From assembly GCA_964551495.1 (NCBI GenBank), contig CAZKCA010000004.1, positions 15,439 through 79,438 of the forward strand: a DNA stretch of 64,000 nt, read 5' to 3'. This document shows, piece after piece, positions 14,677-61,974 of this stretch. The notes beneath the pieces are model-generated. The model was not told where the DNA came from. It was given only the letters and a program-made list of their open reading frames with translations, and did no database searches. A program made the translations under genes and the position numbers. The DNA is from an uncultured Candidatus Saccharibacteria bacterium. Lineage in GTDB: Bacteria; Patescibacteriota; Minisyncoccia; Phycocordibacterales; DATDWN01. Each line of letters starts with the position of its first letter. Position 1 is the first letter of the stretch.

Positions 14677-17600
14677 TTAAAAAGTGGCGGTGATTGTATA
14701 AGTTATAGTTGCATTATAATTTCCTGCTGAAGTTGCGCTGTCTATATTACCAATATAACGAACCCCAAAAACAGTTTCTACTTCATCACCATCACCTGAA
14801 AAAATCAAATCAGGAAAAGCAGATGTATCTAATGCCCAATCTGAACTGTTATAAGGAGAAGCGACGGTTCCATTTCCAGAACTAACCGTTGCTCTTAATC
14901 CAAACTGTTTTGTTCCAACAGAAGAAGGTGTAGAAACGCCACCTATAGCATCTATAGTTGCCCCTCCACAAGCTGTACAAGTAAGAGTTGTTCCGCTGAC
15001 AGTTATTACATATCCTCCAGAGGCATTTGTTGAAGCAGATATTGTATGAGCTGAAGCAGAATCAGATCCAGAACCATTACTATCCCCAGTTGCATATCGA
15101 GCAGCAGAAGGATTTAGAGTTCCAAAACCTATAGAATTATCGGATATTGAAAAAGTGATAGACTGAGCTCCTCCTGTTGAAGCAGTTGTGATTTCAGGAT
15201 ATGAAGAATAACTATTTAAAGCCGAGCCATTTGACTTTACCACCCTAAAACAAAAAGTTGTGTCTGGATCAGCACCGTTATCAATCAAAGAAAAATCCCA
15301 TTTACCATCTTGACCAGAAGGTATGGCTGACTGACTATTTGTAAAATTATTTGACTCTTCGTATGTCTGATTAACAATTGTATCTCCGCTATGGGTTGGA
15401 TCATTAGCATTTGAAGTTAAAGCCGATCCATCAGAAGGAGTTGCGTTATCATTAAAAGCTATAACTGTTGCCCCTGTCACATCAGTATAAGAAGCTGGAC
15501 TACCACCAGATGGAGAAGCACAGCTTCCAGCACCCTTATCAACAAACTGCAATTTAAAACTTTGTCCATTTTGAGCAACCTGATTACTTCCTACATGAAT
15601 TAAAGTTCTGAGTCTAAAAGGATCACCAGAAGAAGTTAAAGTAGCAGGAGTGTCTTGTAGAGCTAGAGCAGAACCAACATCGGTTGAATTAGAGTTTGCA
15701 AAGAAACGATATGCCGACTGTTCAAAAGTTGGTAGTATATACCTTTCCGAAGCTACTGCTATCTTTGTTAGGGGTAATCCCGTCCTAGCTACAGGACCAC
15801 CCCAAAGAGCCGAGGCTGTTCCCCATGTCTGAGATCCTCCAGTTAATCTATTTTCTGTGATATCCATTGATGCTGCTGCCGAACTTTCGTAGGCAACTAA
15901 AAACATTGCACCAGAATTAGGATGAGCATTAAGCAACATAAAATCAGTATCATCTCCCTGAGTTGTGGCAGTCCCCCACGAAGAAGTTGGACCATTCCAA
16001 AGTTTTCTAGAAATTGTGTTTCCGTCTCCATAAACAAGCCAAGCATCATCTGGATTACTTGAATGAGTCTCAAACTTTATATCAAATGCCTGAGAAGCGT
16101 TTGTCTCCGCTGCTGCTGTATGTTCCGTATGCACAGCACTCCAAGCAGTTCCGCTCCATATGAAAGTGTTTAAGTCAGACCCACCATCAAGTGAACCATA
16201 CAATATCTGGTTAGAAGTAGAAGAACCTGTATTAGGAGCTAATATCATCCAGTTATTTACCGCTCCAGCGTTTGGGTTATCTAGCAAAGTAGCAGCAGAC
16301 AAAACTCCACCAGAATAAGTTCTATAATATTGATCCGTTGAAACCGAATCTCCCCAAATAAACATTGCATCTCCCGATGCGGTCTCATAAGCAACATCTA
16401 TAGATTTTTCAGTAGCAATAGAAGCAGTTGCATCCCAAACAGCAGCTGTTCCCATATTGTCCCAAGCACTGCCTGTCCAGCGCATACCATAAACATCAGT
16501 ATTTGCATCTAAAACAATCATTGCTAACTCATCTGAGTTGGGTCTTGAAGCAAGCTCAATCCAGTTTGGTCTTCCAGTCGTGGGTATGTCTATGTTTGTA
16601 GGACCTGTCCAACCAGTTCCATTCCACACATGATAGTTTGGATCAGCGGTTCCATCTCCTGTCACAACAATGGCATCCCCTGAAGTATTTTCATACTCAA
16701 TATCAAATCCTCTATACAAAGATTGAACATCTCTGCTCCCTTGGGCATTATTCATAGTGTTTAACAGAGTAGCTTGACCCCAAACAGAATTTTGCCCATC
16801 CCAAACTTGAGCTTCTACTCTTCCACTGTTACCAGCTGTTAAAAGTATTGCCTCATCTCTTGTTGGAGAAGTTTTTAAAACCATATGCCTTAATTCACCA
16901 GACACAGGAGATGTACTAGCTGGACTACCCCAAGCTGAACCCGTCCATCTTCTATATTGTGGATAAGTAACAGAACTTTCGTCTGTATAAGCCATCATTG
17001 CTTCTGTAGAGGAATTATAAGACTGAGAAGCAAGTACTGATCTACTTGCTCCCATATTTCTTTTAACCGGACCACCCCATATAACAGCAGCTGTTCCCCA
17101 AGTCTGAGATCCTCCCGTTAATCTATTTTCTGTAATATCATCCGTAGCCGCAGTATCATCTTCATAAACAAGAGAAAATACAGCACCAGAATTAGGTTGG
17201 GCATTCAATGAAATTACAGCTGTATCATCTCCTTGAGTGGTAGCAGTTTGCCAAGCAGAAGTGCCTCCATCCCACAACCTCCTTGAGACAGTAGTAGAGT
17301 TTCCCCACCAAAGCCACGCATCATTTGGATTTGAACTATGTGTTTCAAATACAATATCAAAATTCATATCAACAATATCTTCTGTTCCCGCACTATGCTC
17401 TGCATGCACTGCACTCCAAGCAGTTCCACTCCATATAAAAGTGTTAAGGTCTGCACCGGCATCCAAAAGCCCGATCATTATTTGATCCGACCCGGAAGTA
17501 GGGTTTGATGAAAGCTTTAACCAATGAACAACACCACCATTGTTTGCATTGGTAACGTTTGTCACCGCACCCAAAACCCCTCCCGAATAAGCCCTGTATC

Positions 17601-18504
17601 TAAAATGAGCTGTAGCTGCAGTTGCAAATCCCCAGGCAAACATTATATCTCCAGATGTTGTCTCAAAAGCAACATCTACAGCCTTTTTAGTTCCTATTGA
17701 CCCAGAAGCGTCCCATACAACAGCTGTTCCCATATTATCCCAGGCGCTACCTGTCCAACGCATACCATAAACATCGTTATTTGAATCAATAGAAATCATT
17801 GCCAACTCATCGGAACCGGGCCTAGACGCTAATTCTATCCAATAAGGCCTCCCTGTTGTTGGTATGTCTATGTTTACTCCAGAAGCCCAGCTTGTCCCAT
17901 TCCATACATAATAATTTGGATCAGCACTACCATCTGCTGCCACAACTATGGCATCCCCAGAAGTTTGTTCATACTCAACATCAAATCCTCTGTATAAAGA
18001 ACCTCCATCTGGACTACCATTTACATCATTTAATGTAACTAATGTAGTAGGAGTACCCCAAGAAGATCCATTAAATATTTGAGCCTGAACTTCACCTGTG
18101 TTTGTTAAAACAACAAGCACTGCTTCATCTCTTGTGGGAGCATACTTTAACTGCATATGTCTTATATCTGTTCCGTTTACATCAGAAGCAGATAACTCAG
18201 ATCCCCAGGCAGATCCATTCCATACTCTATACTTTGGAGTAGAAGTTCCTGATAAAGTATCATAAACAACCATAGCATCAGAAAGACCATCAGCATATGT
18301 TGTTTTATTTGTCATTTTTGAAAAATACTCATCAACAACATTTGAATCCTTTGATGCTAAATACATCTGATCAACAACATTTGAATCTCTTAGATAACTC
18401 AAGAAAGCCTCAAAAGGAGCTCCAAACCAAAAAATCCCAATAATTAAAAAGGAAGTGAATGCGACTTTAATTATTTTTTTAAAGAATTTAGTATTCGGAA
18501 ACAT
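14677..18504 (-). CDS. Giant (1275 aa) secreted repeat protein. It has two tandem ~400-aa Trp/Gly-rich propeller-like repeat units plus the shared C-terminal domain.
   Basis: N-terminal TM/signal. Residues ~80-480 and ~515-915 are near-duplicates (KYRVWNGSAWGSELSASDVNGTDIRHMQLKYAPTRDEAVL... versus QYRRWTGSAWGSPASTSPVSGELRHMVLKTSPTRDEAIL...). This shows as a ~1.2-kb DNA tandem repeat. The C-terminus matches the 13498-14601 protein. Confidence 0.55.
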   Translation of the reverse strand: MFPNTKFFKKIIKVAFTSFLIIGIFWFGAPFEAFLSYLRDSNVVDQMYLASKDSNVVDEYFSKMTNKTTYADGLSDAMVVYDTLSGTSTPKYRVWNGSAWGSELSASDVNGTDIRHMQLKYAPTRDEAVLVVLTNTGEVQAQIFNGSSWGTPTTLVTLNDVNGSPDGGSLYRGFDVEYEQTSGDAIVVAADGSADPNYYVWNGTSWASGVNIDIPTTGRPYWIELASRPGSDELAMISIDSNNDVYGMRWTGSAWDNMGTAVVWDASGSIGTKKAVDVAFETTSGDIMFAWGFATAATAHFRYRAYSGGVLGAVTNVTNANNGGVVHWLKLSSNPTSGSDQIMIGLLDAGADLNTFIWSGTAWSAVHAEHSAGTEDIVDMNFDIVFETHSSNPNDAWLWWGNSTTVSRRLWDGGTSAWQTATTQGDDTAVISLNAQPNSGAVFSLVYEDDTAATDDITENRLTGGSQTWGTAAVIWGGPVKRNMGASRSVLASQSYNSSTEAMMAYTDESSVTYPQYRRWTGSAWGSPASTSPVSGELRHMVLKTSPTRDEAILLTAGNSGRVEAQVWDGQNSVWGQATLLNTMNNAQGSRDVQSLYRGFDIEYENTSGDAIVVTGDGTADPNYHVWNGTGWTGPTNIDIPTTGRPNWIELASRPNSDELAMIVLDANTDVYGMRWTGSAWDNMGTAAVWDATASIATEKSIDVAYETASGDAMFIWGDSVSTDQYYRTYSGGVLSAATLLDNPNAGAVNNWMILAPNTGSSTSNQILYGSLDGGSDLNTFIWSGTAWSAVHTEHTAAAETNASQAFDIKFETHSSNPDDAWLVYGDGNTISRKLWNGPTSSWGTATTQGDDTDFMLLNAHPNSGAMFLVAYESSAAASMDITENRLTGGSQTWGTASALWGGPVARTGLPLTKIAVASERYILPTFEQSAYRFFANSNSTDVGSALALQDTPATLTSSGDPFRLRTLIHVGSNQVAQNGQSFKLQFVDKGAGSCASPSGGSPASYTDVTGATVIAFNDNATPSDGSALTSNANDPTHSGDTIVNQTYEESNNFTNSQSAIPSGQDGKWDFSLIDNGADPDTTFCFRVVKSNGSALNSYSSYPEITTASTGGAQSITFSISDNSIGFGTLNPSAARYATGDSNGSGSDSASAHTISASTNASGGYVITVSGTTLTCTACGGATIDAIGGVSTPSSVGTKQFGLRATVSSGNGTVASPYNSSDWALDTSAFPDLIFSGDGDEVETVFGVRYIGNIDSATSAGNYNATITYTITATF

Positions 18505-25939: not shown

Positions 25940-26142
25940 AAATTAATTATATCGCTTTCTGTGATTTTGCTAAGCACACGCCTCGGGCACTATAACCTAT
26001 CACGAGTTGGCTGGCAGACTTGGAATCTTCACACCTGGGAAACCCACGGTTTTCCCAATCCTTCCTCCACGGGAAACTCCCGTTTCCCGACCCTTTCCCA
26101 GTTCGAGTCCAAGTCTGAACAACAAAACAGCTCCGCTGTTTG

Positions 26143-26213
26143 CTGCCAGACTTGGACTCGAACCAAGATAACCTCCTCCAGAGGGAGGTGTCCTACCATT
26201 AGACGATCTAGCA
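26143..26213 (-). tRNA. tRNA-Gln(CUG).
   Basis: Manual fold: acceptor TGCTAGA/TCTGGCA, D arm GTCT-AATGGTA-GGAC, anticodon stem CCTCC/GGAGG with loop CTCTGGA (anticodon CUG), T arm CTTGG-TTCGAGT-CCAAG. Confidence 0.7.
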
Positions 26214-29827: not shown

Positions 29828-30094
29828 TTAAATCTTTCGACCGAAATTATATAAATAATCTTTTAATCTCCTTTTTAGAAGCCTTGCTCCTTGTGTAGTT
29901 TTTAAATATCTTTCTCTTCTCCTTGCATCACTTTCTACAAGACACGCTTCATAATATATTACCTTCCAAGGTAAACCTTTTTTAGTTGAAAGATTTAACC
30001 CTTGATTATGTTCCTTTAATCTTTTCTTTAAATCAGAAGTATAACCCTTGTATAAATCATCGTCCTTGTTTTGTAAAACATAAATATAGAACAT
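29828..30094 (-). CDS. GIY-YIG nuclease-domain protein (UPF0213/YhbQ-like).
   Basis: FYIYVLQNKDDDLYKGYTSDLKKRLKEHN...YYEAC. The GIY...YIG and R...E residues are arranged as in this family. Paralog at 52417-52662. Confidence 0.7.
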   Translation of the reverse strand: MFYIYVLQNKDDDLYKGYTSDLKKRLKEHNQGLNLSTKKGLPWKVIYYEACLVESDARRRERYLKTTQGARLLKRRLKDYLYNFGRKI

Positions 30095-30174
30095 AATCTA
30101 ACTAAAATTTCACTACAGGGTCATACCTATTTAGTATAACTCATTAAAAAAGGGTTCGCAAAAATACTAAAACC

Positions 30175-34314: not shown

Positions 34315-34391
34315 GTCGGCGTAGCTCAGTTGGTTAGAGCGTGGGACTCATAAGCCCAAGGTCGGAGGTTCGATCCCCCCCGCCGACACCA
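34315..34391 (+). tRNA. tRNA-Met(CAU) (elongator or Ile2-type), CCA encoded.
   Basis: GTCGGCG-TA-GCTC-AGTTGGTTA-GAGC...loop CTCATAA...GGAGG-TTCGATC-CCCCC-CGCCGAC-A-CCA. Close to E. coli elongator tRNA-Met. Confidence 0.75.
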
Positions 34392-34572
34392 GAGTGTCTA
34401 GGAGAAAGCTCTGGGAGAGCTTTCGTGGGGGATCGAAGCCCGATTGAGCTATTTTATGAGCTAGCTAAATAAAATAGCCAATTGGGATACTGATCCTGTA
34501 AGGATCGATCCTTCAATACAGAACCGACAAGCAGGAAAATATTTGTCGAAGATTCCCTCCCCCGCCGACACA
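34392..34572 (+). repeat. tRNA-abutting structured element, copy A (family shared with 34822-35016, 52756-53087 and 61734-61901).
   Basis: Starts right after the CCA of tRNA-Met. Contains hairpin gctattttat-GAGCTAGCTA-ataaaatagc and module UACUGA-ucc-UGUAA-gga-UCGAUCC. Ends with cccccgccgacaca, a copy of the tRNA-Met 3' end. Confidence 0.55.
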
Positions 34573-34579
34573 AAAATAT

Positions 34580-34792
34580 ATGAAAAAAATACAATATTAC
34601 ACACTACGAATATTTTTAACAATGATGGTTTTATGTGCCAGTCTAATGCTACATATGATATGGAGAGGTGGACCAGATGAGTTTGATGTAATAAATCAAT
34701 TGACCATTAGTTCTTTCGTAATAGGATTGGGATCATTTCTTATTTGGATTACTACTATTATAATTGAAGTGAAAAATAATATATTGAAGTAG
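34580..34792 (+). CDS. Small two-TM hypothetical protein (70 aa).
   Basis: ORF starts immediately after element A and has hydrophobic helices. No SD. Confidence 0.3.
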   Translation: MKKIQYYTLRIFLTMMVLCASLMLHMIWRGGPDEFDVINQLTISSFVIGLGSFLIWITTIIIEVKNNILK

Positions 34793-34821
34793 GATTAGGA
34801 TTTGGTCATAAATTAATAATG

Positions 34822-35016
34822 TAGGGACCAGGATTTTTTCCATAATTTAACTCGCCGTCGCTCATTAAATTATGGAACGCAGATTTTCGACAAGCTCTAC
34901 TGAGTTTGTAAACCGAAAATCTGTGCAAATCCTGACATAAACTGCTCCCAGCAGTTTACTGTCCGCGCAAAATATAAAATAAAAACCGCCCTTTGGGGCA
35001 GTTTTTATTTTGATTG
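34822..35016 (-). repeat. tRNA-abutting structured element, copy D (downstream of minus-strand tRNA-Met).
   Basis: Read on the minus strand it has an imperfect hairpin plus U-run, then the perfect 10-bp stem cagauuuucg/cgaaaaucug enclosing acaagcuc-uacu-gaguuuguaaac, then ccauaauuuaa-UGAGCGACGGCGAG-uuaaauuaugg. It ends aauccuggucccuac, which copies the T-loop/acceptor 3' end of tRNA 35017-35087. Confidence 0.55.
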
Positions 35017-35087
35017 TTGCGGGACCAGGATTTGCACCTGGGCCTACAGGTTATGAGCCTGTCGAGCTACTACTGCTCTATCCCGCT
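35017..35087 (-). tRNA. tRNA-Met/Ile2(CAU).
   Basis: AGCGGGA-TA-GAGC-AGTAGTA-GCTC-G-ACAGG-CTCATAA-CCTGT-AGGC-CCAGG-TGCAAAT-CCTGG-TCCCGCA-A. There is an A1-A72 mismatch. The anticodon stem is not initiator-like. Confidence 0.6.
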
Positions 35088-52416: not shown

Positions 52417-52662
52417 ATGTATTATGTATACATATTAAAAAGCAAAATAAATTCAAAACTATACAAAGGTTTAACTTCTGACTTGAAAAGAAGAGTTAAA
52501 GAACATTGTTCTGGAAATTCAAAATTTACTAGTGAAAATGGACCTTGGGAACTAGTTTATTATGAAGCTTTTAATAAAAAAGATGATGCGATAAGAGAAG
52601 AAAAGTTTTTAAAGTCAGGAAAAGGACGAGAAAGAATAAAATACTTGTTAAACATTAAATAA
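52417..52662 (+). CDS. GIY-YIG nuclease-domain protein (UPF0213/YhbQ-like), paralog of 29828-30094.
   Basis: From internal Met: MYYVYILKSKINSKLYKGLTSDLKRRVKEH...YYEAF. Ends 4 nt before tRNA-Ser. Confidence 0.65.
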   Translation: MYYVYILKSKINSKLYKGLTSDLKRRVKEHCSGNSKFTSENGPWELVYYEAFNKKDDAIREEKFLKSGKGRERIKYLLNIK

Positions 52663-52666
52663 TTAT

Positions 52667-52753
52667 GGAGACGTGGCTGAGTGGTCGAAAGCACCTCACT
52701 GCTAACGAGGCAGGGTCTAAAAGCCCTCCAGGGTTCGAATCCCTGCGTCTCCG
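52667..52753 (+). tRNA. tRNA-Ser(GCU), class II with long variable arm.
   Basis: GGAGACG-TG-GCTGAGTGGTCGAAAGC...loop CTGCTAA...variable CAGGGTCTAAAAGCCCTCC-AGGG-TTCGAAT-CCCTG-CGTCTCC-G. Confidence 0.75.
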
Positions 52754-52755
52754 CA

Positions 52756-52911
52756 GGAGAAATTTAACAAAGTTAAATTTAGTAGAGCAGGTTTTGTAAT
52801 CAAAACCGTCGCGAGGATTCGAAGCCCGATTGAGGTATTTTATGAGCTTACGAAATAAAATACCCAATTGGGGTACTGAAACTGTAAGTTTCGAATCCCT
52901 GCGTCTCCGCA
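52756..52911 (+). repeat. tRNA-abutting structured element, copy B.
   Basis: Hairpin gguauuuuau-GAGCUUACGA-aauaaaauacc (compensatory to copy A). Module UACUGA-aac-UGUAA-guu-UCGAAUCC. Ends with cctgcgtctccgca, an exact copy of the tRNA-Ser 3' end. Confidence 0.55.
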
Positions 52912-53087
52912 ACAGCAGATTGAGTTGAGTACATCTCAACAAAATCTGATGTCGGTAGAAGTTAGGGATGAGAAAGACGGAGGCGGTATACAAGCGAGCA
53001 AAGCGAGGCTTGTCGCCGAGTCGGGGTCGAAAGTTCTTATGAGCGGAGCGAATTAGAAACTTGTGACCGAATCCCTGCGTCTCCGCC
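52912..53087 (+). repeat. tRNA-abutting structured element, copy C (divergent), in tandem with B.
   Basis: GC-richer. Hairpin aaguucuuau-GAGCGGAGCGA-auuagaaacuu. Ends with gaatccctgcgtctccgcc, a third copy of the tRNA-Ser 3' end. Confidence 0.45.
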
Positions 53088-53093
53088 AAAAAT

Positions 53094-53114
53094 AAAACAC
53101 CCTAAGGGTGTTTT
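53094..53114. terminator. Bidirectional intrinsic terminator (aaaacaccc-taa-gggtgtttt).
   Basis: 9-bp stem with an A-run and a T-run. Lies between element C and the end of the protease gene. Confidence 0.65.
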
Positions 53115-53124
53115 ATTTTTTCTA

Positions 53125-61696: not shown

Positions 61697-61733
61697 AGGG
61701 GTATTATACAGATGATTTTAAAAAGGCACACCA

Positions 61734-61901
61734 GGATTCGACCCTTACAGGGTCAGTACTGAGCACCAGGACTCTCCCTCGAAATTTTTTCGTCGCCACT
61801 CAAAAATTTCTGGGCACCGGTTTGTCGACAAACTCTGGTGAGTTTGTAAACCGACAAACCGTTCGAATCCTTAATACAAAGCTACGCTTTGTACTTACGT
61901 G
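61734..61901 (-). repeat. tRNA-abutting structured element, copy E (downstream of tRNA-Ile).
   Basis: On the minus strand: hairpin plus U-run, then the 10-bp stem cgguuugucg/cgacaaaccg (compensatory to copy D) enclosing acaaacuc-ugguga-guuuguaaac, then UACUGA-ccc-UGUAA-ggg-UCGAAUCC. It ends with cuggugugcc, a copy of the tRNA-Ile T-arm/acceptor 3' end. Confidence 0.55.
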
Positions 61902-61974
61902 TGCACGTACCAGGATTCGAACCTGGGACCGGTCGTGTATAAGACGACTGCTCTACCAACTGAGCTATACGTGC
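61902..61974 (-). tRNA. tRNA-Ile(UAU).
   Basis: GCACGTA-TA-GCTC-AGTTGGTA-GAGC-A-GTCGT-CTTATAC-ACGAC-CGGTC-CCAGG-TTCGAAT-CCTGG-TACGTGC-A. Fully canonical cloverleaf. Confidence 0.8.

Follow-up and report, generated by a model that had tools for sequence, protein, structure and literature searches.

A candidate Patescibacteria-wide superfamily of small structured insertions at the 3′ ends of tRNA genes

Five of the six tRNA genes in the 64-kb stretch of DNA analysed here (the window) carry elements of 130–190 nt, every one of which terminates in X, a copy of its own tRNA's T-loop-to-discriminator segment, and also holds X′, an inverted Watson–Crick copy of X. We put at roughly 55% the probability that these elements belong to a Patescibacteria-wide superfamily of small structured insertions at tRNA/tmRNA 3′ ends. 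tRNA genes are classic landing sites for phages and genomic islands, and to our knowledge the elements that land in them always bring their own integrase. The insertions described here are very small, protein-less and structured, tailored to their own tRNA and turning over between near-identical strains, in a large and poorly understood bacterial radiation. Should they prove mobile, they would reduce site-specific mobility to a minimal unit and suggest that trans-acting machinery operates in reduced genomes; should they prove to be RNAs, they would make up a large new family of tRNA-framed non-coding RNAs. They also confuse att-site-based calling of prophages and islands, and virus–host linking, in Patescibacteria metagenomes.

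Elements at the tRNA genes of the window

A sequence-only reading of this DNA had described four tRNAs followed by an element, the inserts forming one family of five copies and each ending in a duplicated tRNA 3′ segment. The tRNAs lie at the positions it named, the elements at those sites are real, and exact downstream duplicates were found at each named tRNA: 13 nt at tRNA-Met on the plus strand, 13 nt at tRNA-Met on the minus strand, 21 nt and then 19 nt in the two elements at tRNA-Ser, and 12 nt at tRNA-Ile. The count was short, however, as tRNA-Gln (CUG; 26142–26213, minus strand) and its element F had been overlooked; the duplicate there is exact over 10 nt and matches at 16 of 17 positions overall. 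The internal inverted copy X′, with its pairing to the terminal duplicate, and the chimeric nature of copy A had also escaped notice, and cctgcgtctccgca, said to occur three times after tRNA-Ser, occurs twice, the third occurrence appearing only when the final 'a' is left off.

The elements do not form a single five-copy family: their cores fall into at least three to five types. Type I is represented by A and B, type II by C and type III by F, and E has a type-I frame with other modules. The three modules into which the interiors had earlier been divided are real, with stems correctly quoted, but they are not separate units: all are parts of a single frame, in which an X′/X helix closes round a junction core. 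Across the 64 kb, module 2 has three exact matches against 0.14 expected, module 3 two matches against 0 expected and the A/B core two matches against 0 expected, in each case adjacent to tRNAs only. Module 3 was absent from all other fetched loci. None of the elements has coding capacity; they do create spurious ORFs, for example at 52655–53089 (minus strand).

Four of the copies (B, A, E and D) are recovered by R1, a covariance model built from other genomes only, with no window copies. Element A (34392–34573, plus strand; 77 bits at 34424–34517) follows its target, an elongator-type tRNA-Met (CAU) with encoded CCA (34315–34391, plus strand). Its side hairpin HP1 (GAAAGCTCT-GGG-AGAGCTTTC, apex CUGGGAG; 34404–34424) is followed by X′ (GTGGGGGATC, an inverted copy of the T-loop/T-stem 3′ strand) and then junction J1 (GAAG), together at 34425–34438. 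Helix HII (34439–34486), the former module 1, pairs CCCGATTG with CAATTGGG in its outer stem and continues through an AU-rich inner stem to a loop starting UGAGC, and the former module 2 (34487–34506) consists of J2 (AUACU) and HIII (GAUCC-UGUAA-GGAUC). Next come a leftover hairpin (34525–34548) and the distal repeat X (CCCCCGCCGACAC; 34559–34571), which is identical to tRNA positions 34377–34389; all these parts lie on the plus strand. The 3′ half of the leftover hairpin is common with a type-II element at the same site in a relative (L344). A is a chimera, in which a type-I core is joined to what is left of the 3′ part of an older type-II element. A 70-aa membrane-like ORF (34580–34792, plus strand) lies in the flank of A, outside the element.

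Element D (34824–35015, minus strand; R1 21 bits, E = 0.002) stands behind the second tRNA-Met (CAU; 35016–35087, minus strand), whose 1–72 mismatch suggests that it is initiator-type. On that strand D comprises a terminator (34976–35011), HP1 (34937–34959), X′ (34924–34936), module 3 (34880–34923), module 1 (34840–34875) and a distal X (34824–34836).

Behind tRNA-Ser (GCU; 52667–52754, plus strand) lie the type-I element B (52755–52910; R1 84 bits) and the type-II element C (52911–53088), both on the plus strand. B contains an acceptor-5′-like GGAGA (52756–52760), two hairpins, X′ (52810–52820), HII (52825–52872), J2 with HIII (52873–52892) and X (52890–52910); C contains a hairpin (52916–52948), X′ (52961–52969), a core (52970–53068) and a distal X with CCA (53069–53088). 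The original tRNA-Ser terminator (53088–53121, plus strand) comes after C and is orthologous to that of a relative (L246), where it directly adjoins the tRNA. The cores of A and B are 90% identical, with a compensatory C-G/G-C swap between them.

The two remaining elements are on the minus strand. Element E (61725–61900; R1 36 bits), behind tRNA-Ile (UAU; 61901–61974), has a hairpin (61874–61894), X′ (61861–61872), module 3 (61819–61860), module 1 (61776–61814), J2 with HIII (61740–61759) and a distal X (61725–61739). Element F (type III; 26008–26141), behind tRNA-Gln, has a terminator (26118–26141), X′ (26101–26117, complementary to the tRNA at 17 of 17 positions), a core (26025–26100) and a distal X with CCA (26008–26024).

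A conserved fold on the tRNA-sense strand and its distribution

Elements are about 90–190 nt long and ORF-less. The inserted order is an intact tRNA (ending in X), a short spacer, X′, the core, a second X and the original 3′ flank with its terminator; the spacer is often a terminator-like hairpin, which stands between tRNA and element in roughly 40% of copies. X spans T-loop to discriminator with a modal length of 20–24 nt, in most copies stops exactly at the 3′ end of the tRNA and retains the native discriminator-plus-CA context. The 'CA' was considered as an insertion scar and rejected, as empty tRNA genes share it. X′ is usually split by HP1, whose position within it is variable, and often pairs with the discriminator too; it does not reach over CCA. 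This inverted copy was present in 52 of 92 inserts versus 1 of 92 upstream controls, and in four of five informative cases its sequence was that of a 3′-strand complement rather than of the tRNA 5′ strand. An acceptor-5′-like strand (≤1 mismatch) accompanies 42 of 74 copies.

X′ and the distal X, T-loop positions 57–60 included, form a helix on the tRNA-sense strand, and this helix closes a multi-helix core. In type I this core is a three-way junction made of J1 (GAAR), the long irregular hairpin HII, J2 (RUACU) and HIII; the last is a 6-bp hairpin, has a GUA triloop and borders T-loop position 57. Two resemblances were rejected: HIII is no T-loop mimic, since the outer U..A of UGUAA covaries to C..G, which leaves a GUA triloop, and the core is not hammerhead-like, since its junction strands, GAAR and RUACU, do not come in hammerhead order. 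Covariation of the helices, proposed earlier from the window copies, held in a proper alignment: compensatory changes affected 24 of 31 pairs among 34 sequences from other genomes, and double changes 28 of 31 pairs among 132 sequences. In the larger set 91% of cells were paired, versus 64% in shuffles and 38–51% in slid controls. The tRNA-sense strand is the folded one, with G·U exceeding A·C by 154 to 66 and G·A exceeding C·U by 112 to 37. For type II, automatic alignment yielded no consensus fold, and covariation (GGTC/GACC, GGCT/AGCC and GTCC/GGAC) was seen by eye only.

Searching 100 loci fetched by the core motif, R1 gave 132 matches, nearly all from Patescibacteria where a taxon was named. 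A match was carried by 87 of the 162 tRNAs in these loci, and all matches downstream of a tRNA or tmRNA were co-oriented with the gene (102 of 102); one tmRNA gene carries an element. The core motif itself had 127 matches, 114 of them with complementary stems, behind tRNAs of every isotype, and among the 80 record titles listed for motif matches 61 name Patescibacteria lineages. Duplicates of the tRNA 3′ segment lie downstream rather than upstream of tRNAs, both in the motif loci (75 versus 0) and in an unbiased tRNA-Ser set (19 versus 1). Inversion of the DNA between X′ and X was rejected, with inverted cores in 0 of 102. Various conserved core types occupy the same tRNA site.

Turnover, mobility and competing explanations

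Among 81 tRNA-Ser loci, 60 were empty, 17 held one element and four held two. Precise empty sites in relatives, which the sequence-only reading had proposed looking for, were found for tRNA-Ser in L246 (identical tRNA, syntenic flanks) and for tRNA-Met in L346, also syntenic, where the 70-aa membrane-like ORF directly follows the tRNA at the site of A; the tRNAs at these empty sites are identical or orthologous to those of the window. In L344, with 97% identity in neighbouring proteins, the site of A is taken by the type-II element, and D has a different HP1. These empty sites, with a different element at the same site in so close a relative, indicate dispensable insertions with fast turnover, though presence and absence would also be explained by precise deletion between the two X repeats giving 'empty' sites. 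Elements come and go precisely and also form tandem duplicates. Different loci, and likewise very close relatives, have exchanged cores and side hairpins, and X and X′ stay tRNA-specific; L153 and L177, for example, have a common X′/HP1 frame and different cores.

A Pfam scan of window ORFs of ≥100 aa found no integrase or other recombinase, transposase or reverse transcriptase. Clustering of 1,914 ORFs surrounding more than 130 copies returned housekeeping genes only and no recombinase cluster. In IMG/VR (2.9 million viral contigs) two motif scans found 103 chance matches, all lacking a complementary stem, and one coding-region match. As had been suspected, the inserts are too small for an integrase and encode nothing. 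Of the attL/attR signature suggested for them, the insertion at tRNA 3′ ends, the flanking T-loop-to-acceptor repeats and the precise empty sites stand, but neither an integrase nor an autonomous relative was found and the viral contigs are without copies, so that the repeats are only putative attL and attR of a site-specific integrase. The earlier impression that the architecture matches no described bacterial element agrees with searches of Rfam and the literature, which found none. Rfam 15 returned tRNAs only, both at the gathering threshold across the whole window and at E up to 5–10 in all element regions; YrlA reached 14 bits where 69 are required and permuted tmRNA 10.7 where 47 are, so neither family matched, and small self-cleaving ribozymes had no match at E up to 10. 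Patescibacteria tRNA genes host group I introns that interrupt the anticodon loop and have a group I fold, according to PMC13011429; here Intron_gpI had no match and the tRNAs are intact.

Since the elements encode nothing, host or trans-acting machinery would have to move them, presumably by recombination across X at the tRNA gene. The fold would most likely allow one strand (DNA or RNA) to present a duplex replica of the tRNA-gene target, in a way that may resemble integron attC sites and the CTX-phage attP hairpin, and the conserved junction, with the last core helix abutting position 57, could act as a handle for a host recombinase or nuclease. Such a cassette would insert at and excise from the tRNA gene and leave the tRNA unharmed, the element supplying a replacement 3′ end; tRNA/tmRNA genes would in this way come to anchor ORF-less cassettes in integron-like arrays. 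Tentatively, at somewhat less than even odds, the elements may constitute a new minimal mobile class, Patescibacteria-confined so far, that is solely a folded single-strand recombination site or else a selfish tRNA-mimic transcript that the tRNA enzymes process and CCA-tail. No circular form, excision product or recombinase was seen and these data contain no direct insertion event, and our explanation gives no account of how an element gains both X and X′ for a new tRNA.

It is possible, if rather doubtful, that the elements instead specify small, tRNA-framed RNAs that serve the cell, with transcription reading through into them from the tRNA promoter. The X′/X helix would then imitate the parent tRNA's acceptor and T stems, RNase P and 3′-end/CCA enzymes would free a stable RNA of ~110–150 nt, and the core would be the functional part. 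Several observations fit a functional tRNA-like RNA as well: the co-orientation (102 to 0), the G·U bias that makes the folded strand the sense strand, the end of X at the tRNA 3′ end in most copies and the discriminator-plus-C(A) context, which is typical of these tRNA genes. The acceptor-5′-like strand and the conservation of core motifs across deep lineages speak for such RNAs as well, as does the placement of A, B and C without a preceding terminator and of the tRNA-Ser terminator beyond C. Against this stand the patchy presence at identical tRNAs and the different types that near-identical strains carry per site. The variable position of HP1 within X′ is not that of a strict cloverleaf mimic, X′ often pairs with the discriminator, and the tRNA, tmRNA and YrlA models do not match. 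The terminator-like hairpin that separates tRNA from element in ~40% of copies argues against a need for co-transcription, although read-through is still compatible with it.

The direct repeats of the tRNA 3′ segment and the empty sites are also the classical signature of prophages or integrative elements, and the inserts might be their decayed, CIME-like scars, with remnants of attL, attR and a piece of an attP arm left where a tRNA once served as attB. One locus (L156) has 1.7 kb with two ORFs between tRNA-Ser and an X fragment, in favour of this reading. We find this origin improbable: the interiors are conserved covarying families common to Saccharibacteria and Paceibacteria rather than random remnants, no integrase occurs in the window or recurs near the copies, the viral contigs held no real copy, and tRNA-distant duplicates, the expected trace of larger elements, are rare (four among 354 tRNAs).

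Two further origins have very little probability. In a retroelement-like spread, X′ would be a primer-binding site for the cognate tRNA 3′ end, or the tRNA-like 3′ end would start a reverse transcriptase supplied in trans. X′ does complement the 3′-terminal 16–20 nt of the tRNA body and the distal X ends in CCA in C and F, but X′ stops short of CCA, and neither a reverse transcriptase (in the window or near copies) nor poly-A or any other mark of retro-insertion was found. The other invokes replication by-products: fold-back template switching, at the terminator of the tRNA and at the palindrome TTCGAA in its T-loop, would produce X-X′-X triplications, into which structured cores would later move, or with which they would exchange, by recombination over short homologies and without dedicated machinery. 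The exact complementarity of X′ to X, the perfect inverted repeat of 17 bp on either side of the terminator of F, the minimal elements whose cores are tiny (L329, L258) and the tandem identical units (L333, L297) would fit; cores conserved across phyla-level lineages, the strict orientation, the restriction to Patescibacteria and the conserved junction nucleotides would be left unexplained.

Hardly credible are partial tandem tRNA pseudogenes or tRNA gene duplicates, as D and anticodon arms are missing and X′ follows the 3′-strand complement rather than copying the tRNA 5′ strand, and mobilization by the neighbouring GIY-YIG endonuclease, the partner suggested earlier. The ORF of this endonuclease abuts the window tRNA-Ser and, compared with L246, has itself been inserted, but its homologues flank tRNA-Ser mostly at element-free loci and occur in none of 119 motif loci.

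Comparison with known systems

Like CIMEs and tRNA-integrating islands, the elements insert in the tRNA 3′ region, are flanked by T-loop-to-3′-end direct repeats and keep the tRNA intact through an element-borne 3′ end, and they accrete in tandem and have empty attB sites in relatives (L246, L346). Unlike CIMEs, the insert is just 90–190 nt, without an integrase or parent found in the window, in more than 130 copy neighbourhoods or in viral contigs, and inside it a single-strand fold, with an inverted copy of the target as one of its parts, is conserved and covaries. With MITEs and REP/BIME/Correia elements they share small size, a lack of coding sequence, hairpin formation, many copies per genome and restriction to a lineage. 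In contrast to MITEs, the 'terminal inverted repeat' is target-derived and differs per locus, the flanking repeat of 12–24 nt or more ends at the tRNA end, copies are diverse within one genome (the A/B cores, at 90%, are the best pair) and no related insertion sequence was found.

As in a retroviral/LTR primer-binding site, an internal segment complements the 3′ 16–20 nt of a specific tRNA, but here CCA is uncovered, no reverse transcriptase was found in the window or near copies and the complement normally has its pairing partner in cis. The elements resemble tRNA-like and tRNA-scaffolded RNAs (tmRNA, YrlA, mascRNA, viral tRNA-miRNA and plant tRNA-snoRNA) in their acceptor/T-stem-like closing helix, discriminator and CA or CCA and, lying downstream of a tRNA, are candidate substrates of tRNA-processing enzymes. 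They differ in having a junction in place of the T-loop and in lacking D and anticodon arms. The tRNA that is mimicked changes from copy to copy, and the elements are dispensable, turn over and match no Rfam family.

The comparison with integron attC sites and the forked hairpin of CTX-phage attP(+) is one of analogy, in which a role for IntI or Xer would be hypothetical. Unlike attC, the elements are without the GTTRRRY/RYYYAAC core or dif-like arms, their arms being tRNA sequences of 16–20 nt that are tRNA-specific, and unlike integron cassettes they carry no ORF cargo. As in attC and attP(+), structure is kept rather than sequence, an inverted repeat folds on a specific strand and the fold would recreate a duplex recombination site, with cassette-like tandem arrays beside a fixed site.

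tRNA 3' ends and the architecture of the insertions

Of the six tRNA genes in the window, only tRNA-Thr lacks a downstream duplicate of its own 3' segment. Exact copies follow tRNA-Met(+) (13 nt; element A, 34392..34573, +), tRNA-Met(-) (13 nt; D, 34824..35015, -), tRNA-Ile (12 nt; E, 61725..61900, -) and, in tandem, tRNA-Ser (21 nt, then 19 nt; B, 52755..52910, and C, 52911..53088, both +), as the sequence-only reading had reported. That reading overlooked tRNA-Gln, whose copy (10 nt exact, 16/17 overall) belongs to element F (26008..26141, -). The string cctgcgtctccgca, said to occur three times after tRNA-Ser, does so without its last base; in full it occurs twice. A 144-aa 'ORF' antisense to tRNA-Ser and elements B and C (52655-53089, -) is an artefact, which gene callers could name a hypothetical protein.

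Every window element is much more stably folded than its shuffled counterparts (z -2.8 to -9.8). The duplicated tRNA end at the terminus had been recognized, but each element also holds an inverted Watson-Crick copy (X') of the same T-loop-to-discriminator segment (X), which had been missed; in F, for example, CAGACTTGGACTCGAAC is the reverse complement, 17/17, of tRNA-Gln's GTTCGAGTCCAAGTCTG. Pairing of X' with the terminal X closes the element in all minimum-free-energy folds of window elements. The order of parts is thus a tRNA ending in X, a spacer that is frequently a terminator-like hairpin, X', a core, the second X and the native 3' flank, with X' usually interrupted by a side hairpin, HP1, whose apex is often CUGGGAG. 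An inverted 9-mer was present in 52 of 92 duplicate-flanked inserts versus 1 in upstream controls. In 4 of the 5 cases where acceptor G.U positions are informative, X' matches the tRNA 3' strand by Watson-Crick complementarity, so X' was not copied from the tRNA 5' half.

X starts at T54/T55, has a modal length of 20-24 nt and in most copies ends 0-2 nt from the tRNA 3' end; in about a dozen of 90 copies, tandem units carry it 13-45 nt further. The discriminator and the C(A) after it are retained in X. Across the fetched Patescibacteria-like loci and the window, C follows the discriminator in ~96% of tRNA genes, and 'CA' replaces CCA in 54-64%, with the element present or absent. This context is therefore general and shared by element-free genes, which rules it out as an insertion scar; the unusual conserved flank may reflect a particular route of tRNA 3'-end maturation.

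The type-I core is a three-way junction of J1 (GAAR), HII, J2 (RUACU) and HIII. HII is a long irregular hairpin whose inner part was described earlier as module 1, and HIII, the former module 2, abuts T-loop position 57. Within the window, the modules proposed from sequence match only beside tRNAs, far above chance. Module 3 of D (34880-34923) and E (61819-61860), on the strand opposite the tRNA, contains TACTGAGTTTGTAAAC, a near copy of the type-I J2/HIII motif according to a search with covariance model R1; it was sought in the other fetched loci and found in none.

Covariation and the strand that folds

In an alignment of 34 copies, all from other genomes, RNAalifold predicted 31 pairs, with compensatory changes in 24; the pair of T-loop position 59 with X' covaries (C-G 13, U-A 8, A-U 7, G-C 3). 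R1, built without any window sequence, recovered B (84 bits), A (77), E (36) and D (21; E 0.002) in the window; F was not significant and C was not found. On 100 loci retrieved with a core motif it gave 132 matches, and one lies behind 87 of the 162 tRNAs in them. In the alignment of these matches, 91% of cells are paired, whereas shuffles reach 64% and slid controls 38-51%; double changes occur at 28 of the 31 pairs. The covariation first claimed from the window copies thus persists in proper alignments.

On the tRNA-sense strand, G.U is more frequent than A.C (154:66) and G.A than C.U (112:37), and each of the 102 R1 matches that follow a tRNA or tmRNA gene has the orientation of that gene, indicating that the sense strand is the folded one, either as RNA or as single-stranded DNA. 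The HIII loop UGUAA, kept in 22 of 33 matches not chosen by pattern, covaries to CGUAG, so that HIII consists of a 6-bp stem capped by a GUA triloop.

Distribution, empty sites and exchange of cores

The window (GC ~33%) is Patescibacteria (Paceibacteria-like) chromosome encoding GatCAB, LigA, PyrG, FtsH, MurF, RecG and a type IV pilus/competence cluster; homologues of a 311-aa protein next to the A site are labelled Paceibacterota, Zambryskibacteria or Parcubacteria. A 1275-aa ORF (14677-18504, -) has no Pfam match and lies within the window's only raised-GC stretch (0.38-0.42). Scanning 185,579 species genomes with TACTGA-N3-TGTAA-N3-TCRANTCC yielded at least 119 loci. Among the matches listed, 61 of 80 record titles name Patescibacteria lineages (Saccharibacteria, Paceibacteria, Kaiser-, Nomura-, Zambryski- and Taylorbacteria), 15 name no lineage and 4 name other taxa, comprising 3 chance matches without a complementary stem and 1 real copy. 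The latter, on a contig labelled Patiriisocius sp. (Flavobacteriaceae; L160), is the only real type-I copy outside Patescibacteria labels among the matches listed; the contig may be mis-binned, or type-I elements may on rare occasions occur beyond the radiation. N3 and N3' are perfectly complementary in 114 of 127 matches listed (chance, 1 in 64), and most matches listed lie 80-170 nt downstream of a co-oriented tRNA of any isotype. tmRNA genes are also targets: at L194:3180-3540, a tmRNA-like 3' end (..GGGGGTTCGATTCCCCCCATCTCCACCA) precedes a terminator and then a type-I element, and the X'/X of this element match the tmRNA end. Motif scans of IMG/VR viral contigs gave no real copy. At L148:7760-7840 a type-I copy stands alone: the 260 nt upstream of it contain no tRNA, HP1 is missing and its X'/X stem (CTCCGCGACCAGG.../...CCTGGTCGCGGAG) is contiguous. 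It may be an orphan, or it may have inserted at a secondary site.

When metagenomes were scanned with a 36-mer of the window tRNA-Ser, 81 loci extended far enough downstream to be judged; the duplicate is absent from 60 of them, single in 17 and present twice in 4. The empty sites sought in relatives exist. In L246, which has an identical tRNA-Ser and syntenic flanks (83% identity on the ComF side, 77% on the peptidase side), B+C (52755-53067) are absent and the tRNA runs straight into CCA and the terminator that in the window follows C. Relatives of the A site were found through homologues of the 311-aa protein; in L346 (67% identity), tRNA-Met(e) is directly followed by the small ORF that trails A in the window, and the site is thus empty. 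The segment of tRNA-Met(e) and small ORF is inverted between the window (34315-34792) and L346:4315-4620, which sets the window's two tRNA-Met genes tail to tail.

Cores are exchanged within frames. The tRNA-Ser site of different genomes holds five or more core types; L270 has a single type-I element with a different HII subtype behind the same tRNA-Ser, and L153 and L177 have identical X'/HP1 frames with different cores. C is type II; F is type III, its core common to an element behind tRNA-Ser in L275 with different X'/X. At the A site, L344 (97% identity) carries a type-II element sharing only the last ~35 nt with A, and also D, with a different HP1. A is therefore a chimera in which a type-I core replaced most of an older type-II element; this core and that of B are 90% identical, with a compensatory C-G/G-C swap among their differences. 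Elsewhere, a truncated 5' tRNA copy and a degenerate element, in L123 ending in a palindrome (TCAAGTCC|GGACTTGA), lie just upstream of an intact tRNA (L123:2450-2911, L181:1000-1383); these may be rearrangement products of X-X' recombination.

Neighbouring genes, movement and known systems

The elements have no coding capacity. The recombinase partner that had been suggested did not emerge: no integrase, transposase, reverse transcriptase or HUH gene is present in the window, and none recurs around >130 copies. A GIY-YIG partner fared no better. Two small ORFs (52417-52662, +; 29828-30097, -) match Pfam PF01541; the first, upstream of tRNA-Ser, is absent from syntenic L246, and in many metagenome contigs a homologue adjoins this tRNA-Ser on its upstream or downstream side, mainly at element-free sites; none occurs in the at least 119 motif loci. 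These genes are insertions separate from the small elements and appear to be free-standing mobile nuclease genes favouring tRNA neighbourhoods. A terminator-like hairpin precedes ~40% of type-I copies; in the window, D and F lie behind one, and A, B and C do not. In L156:2577-4521, tRNA-Ser is separated from an X fragment, element and X by ~1.7 kb, whose two ORFs encode a zinc-ribbon protein of 94 aa and a protein of 287 aa without assigned function. The same site may thus serve larger cargo that lacks an integrase.

Taken together, these data show a lineage-wide superfamily of structured, strand-specific insertions at tRNA and tmRNA 3' ends, dispensable and rapidly exchanged, each member framed by a sense and an antisense copy of its target. 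They would move by recombination across X, driven by machinery acting in trans. The main rival, a tRNA-framed RNA processed by tRNA enzymes, would likewise have the sense strand fold, and is compatible with movement of this kind. Prophage scars, tRNA pseudogenes, retroelements and pure replication errors fit less well.

No Rfam family matches the elements, and a full-text literature search of incomplete coverage returned no description of them, in line with the earlier statement that none was known. The nearest paper concerns a different feature, group I introns in the anticodon loops of Patescibacteria tRNAs (PMC13011429). Tested against the defining features of CIMEs, MITEs, integron cassettes, tRNA-like RNA families, small ribozymes and tRNA-primed retroelements, the elements fail in each case, and on these grounds we rate them, within that literature coverage and with a putative mechanism of movement, as a new kind of element. 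In integron attC sites and the CTX attP hairpin, a folded strand presents a duplex replica of the target; by analogy, the folded strand of these elements would present a duplex replica of its tRNA target.
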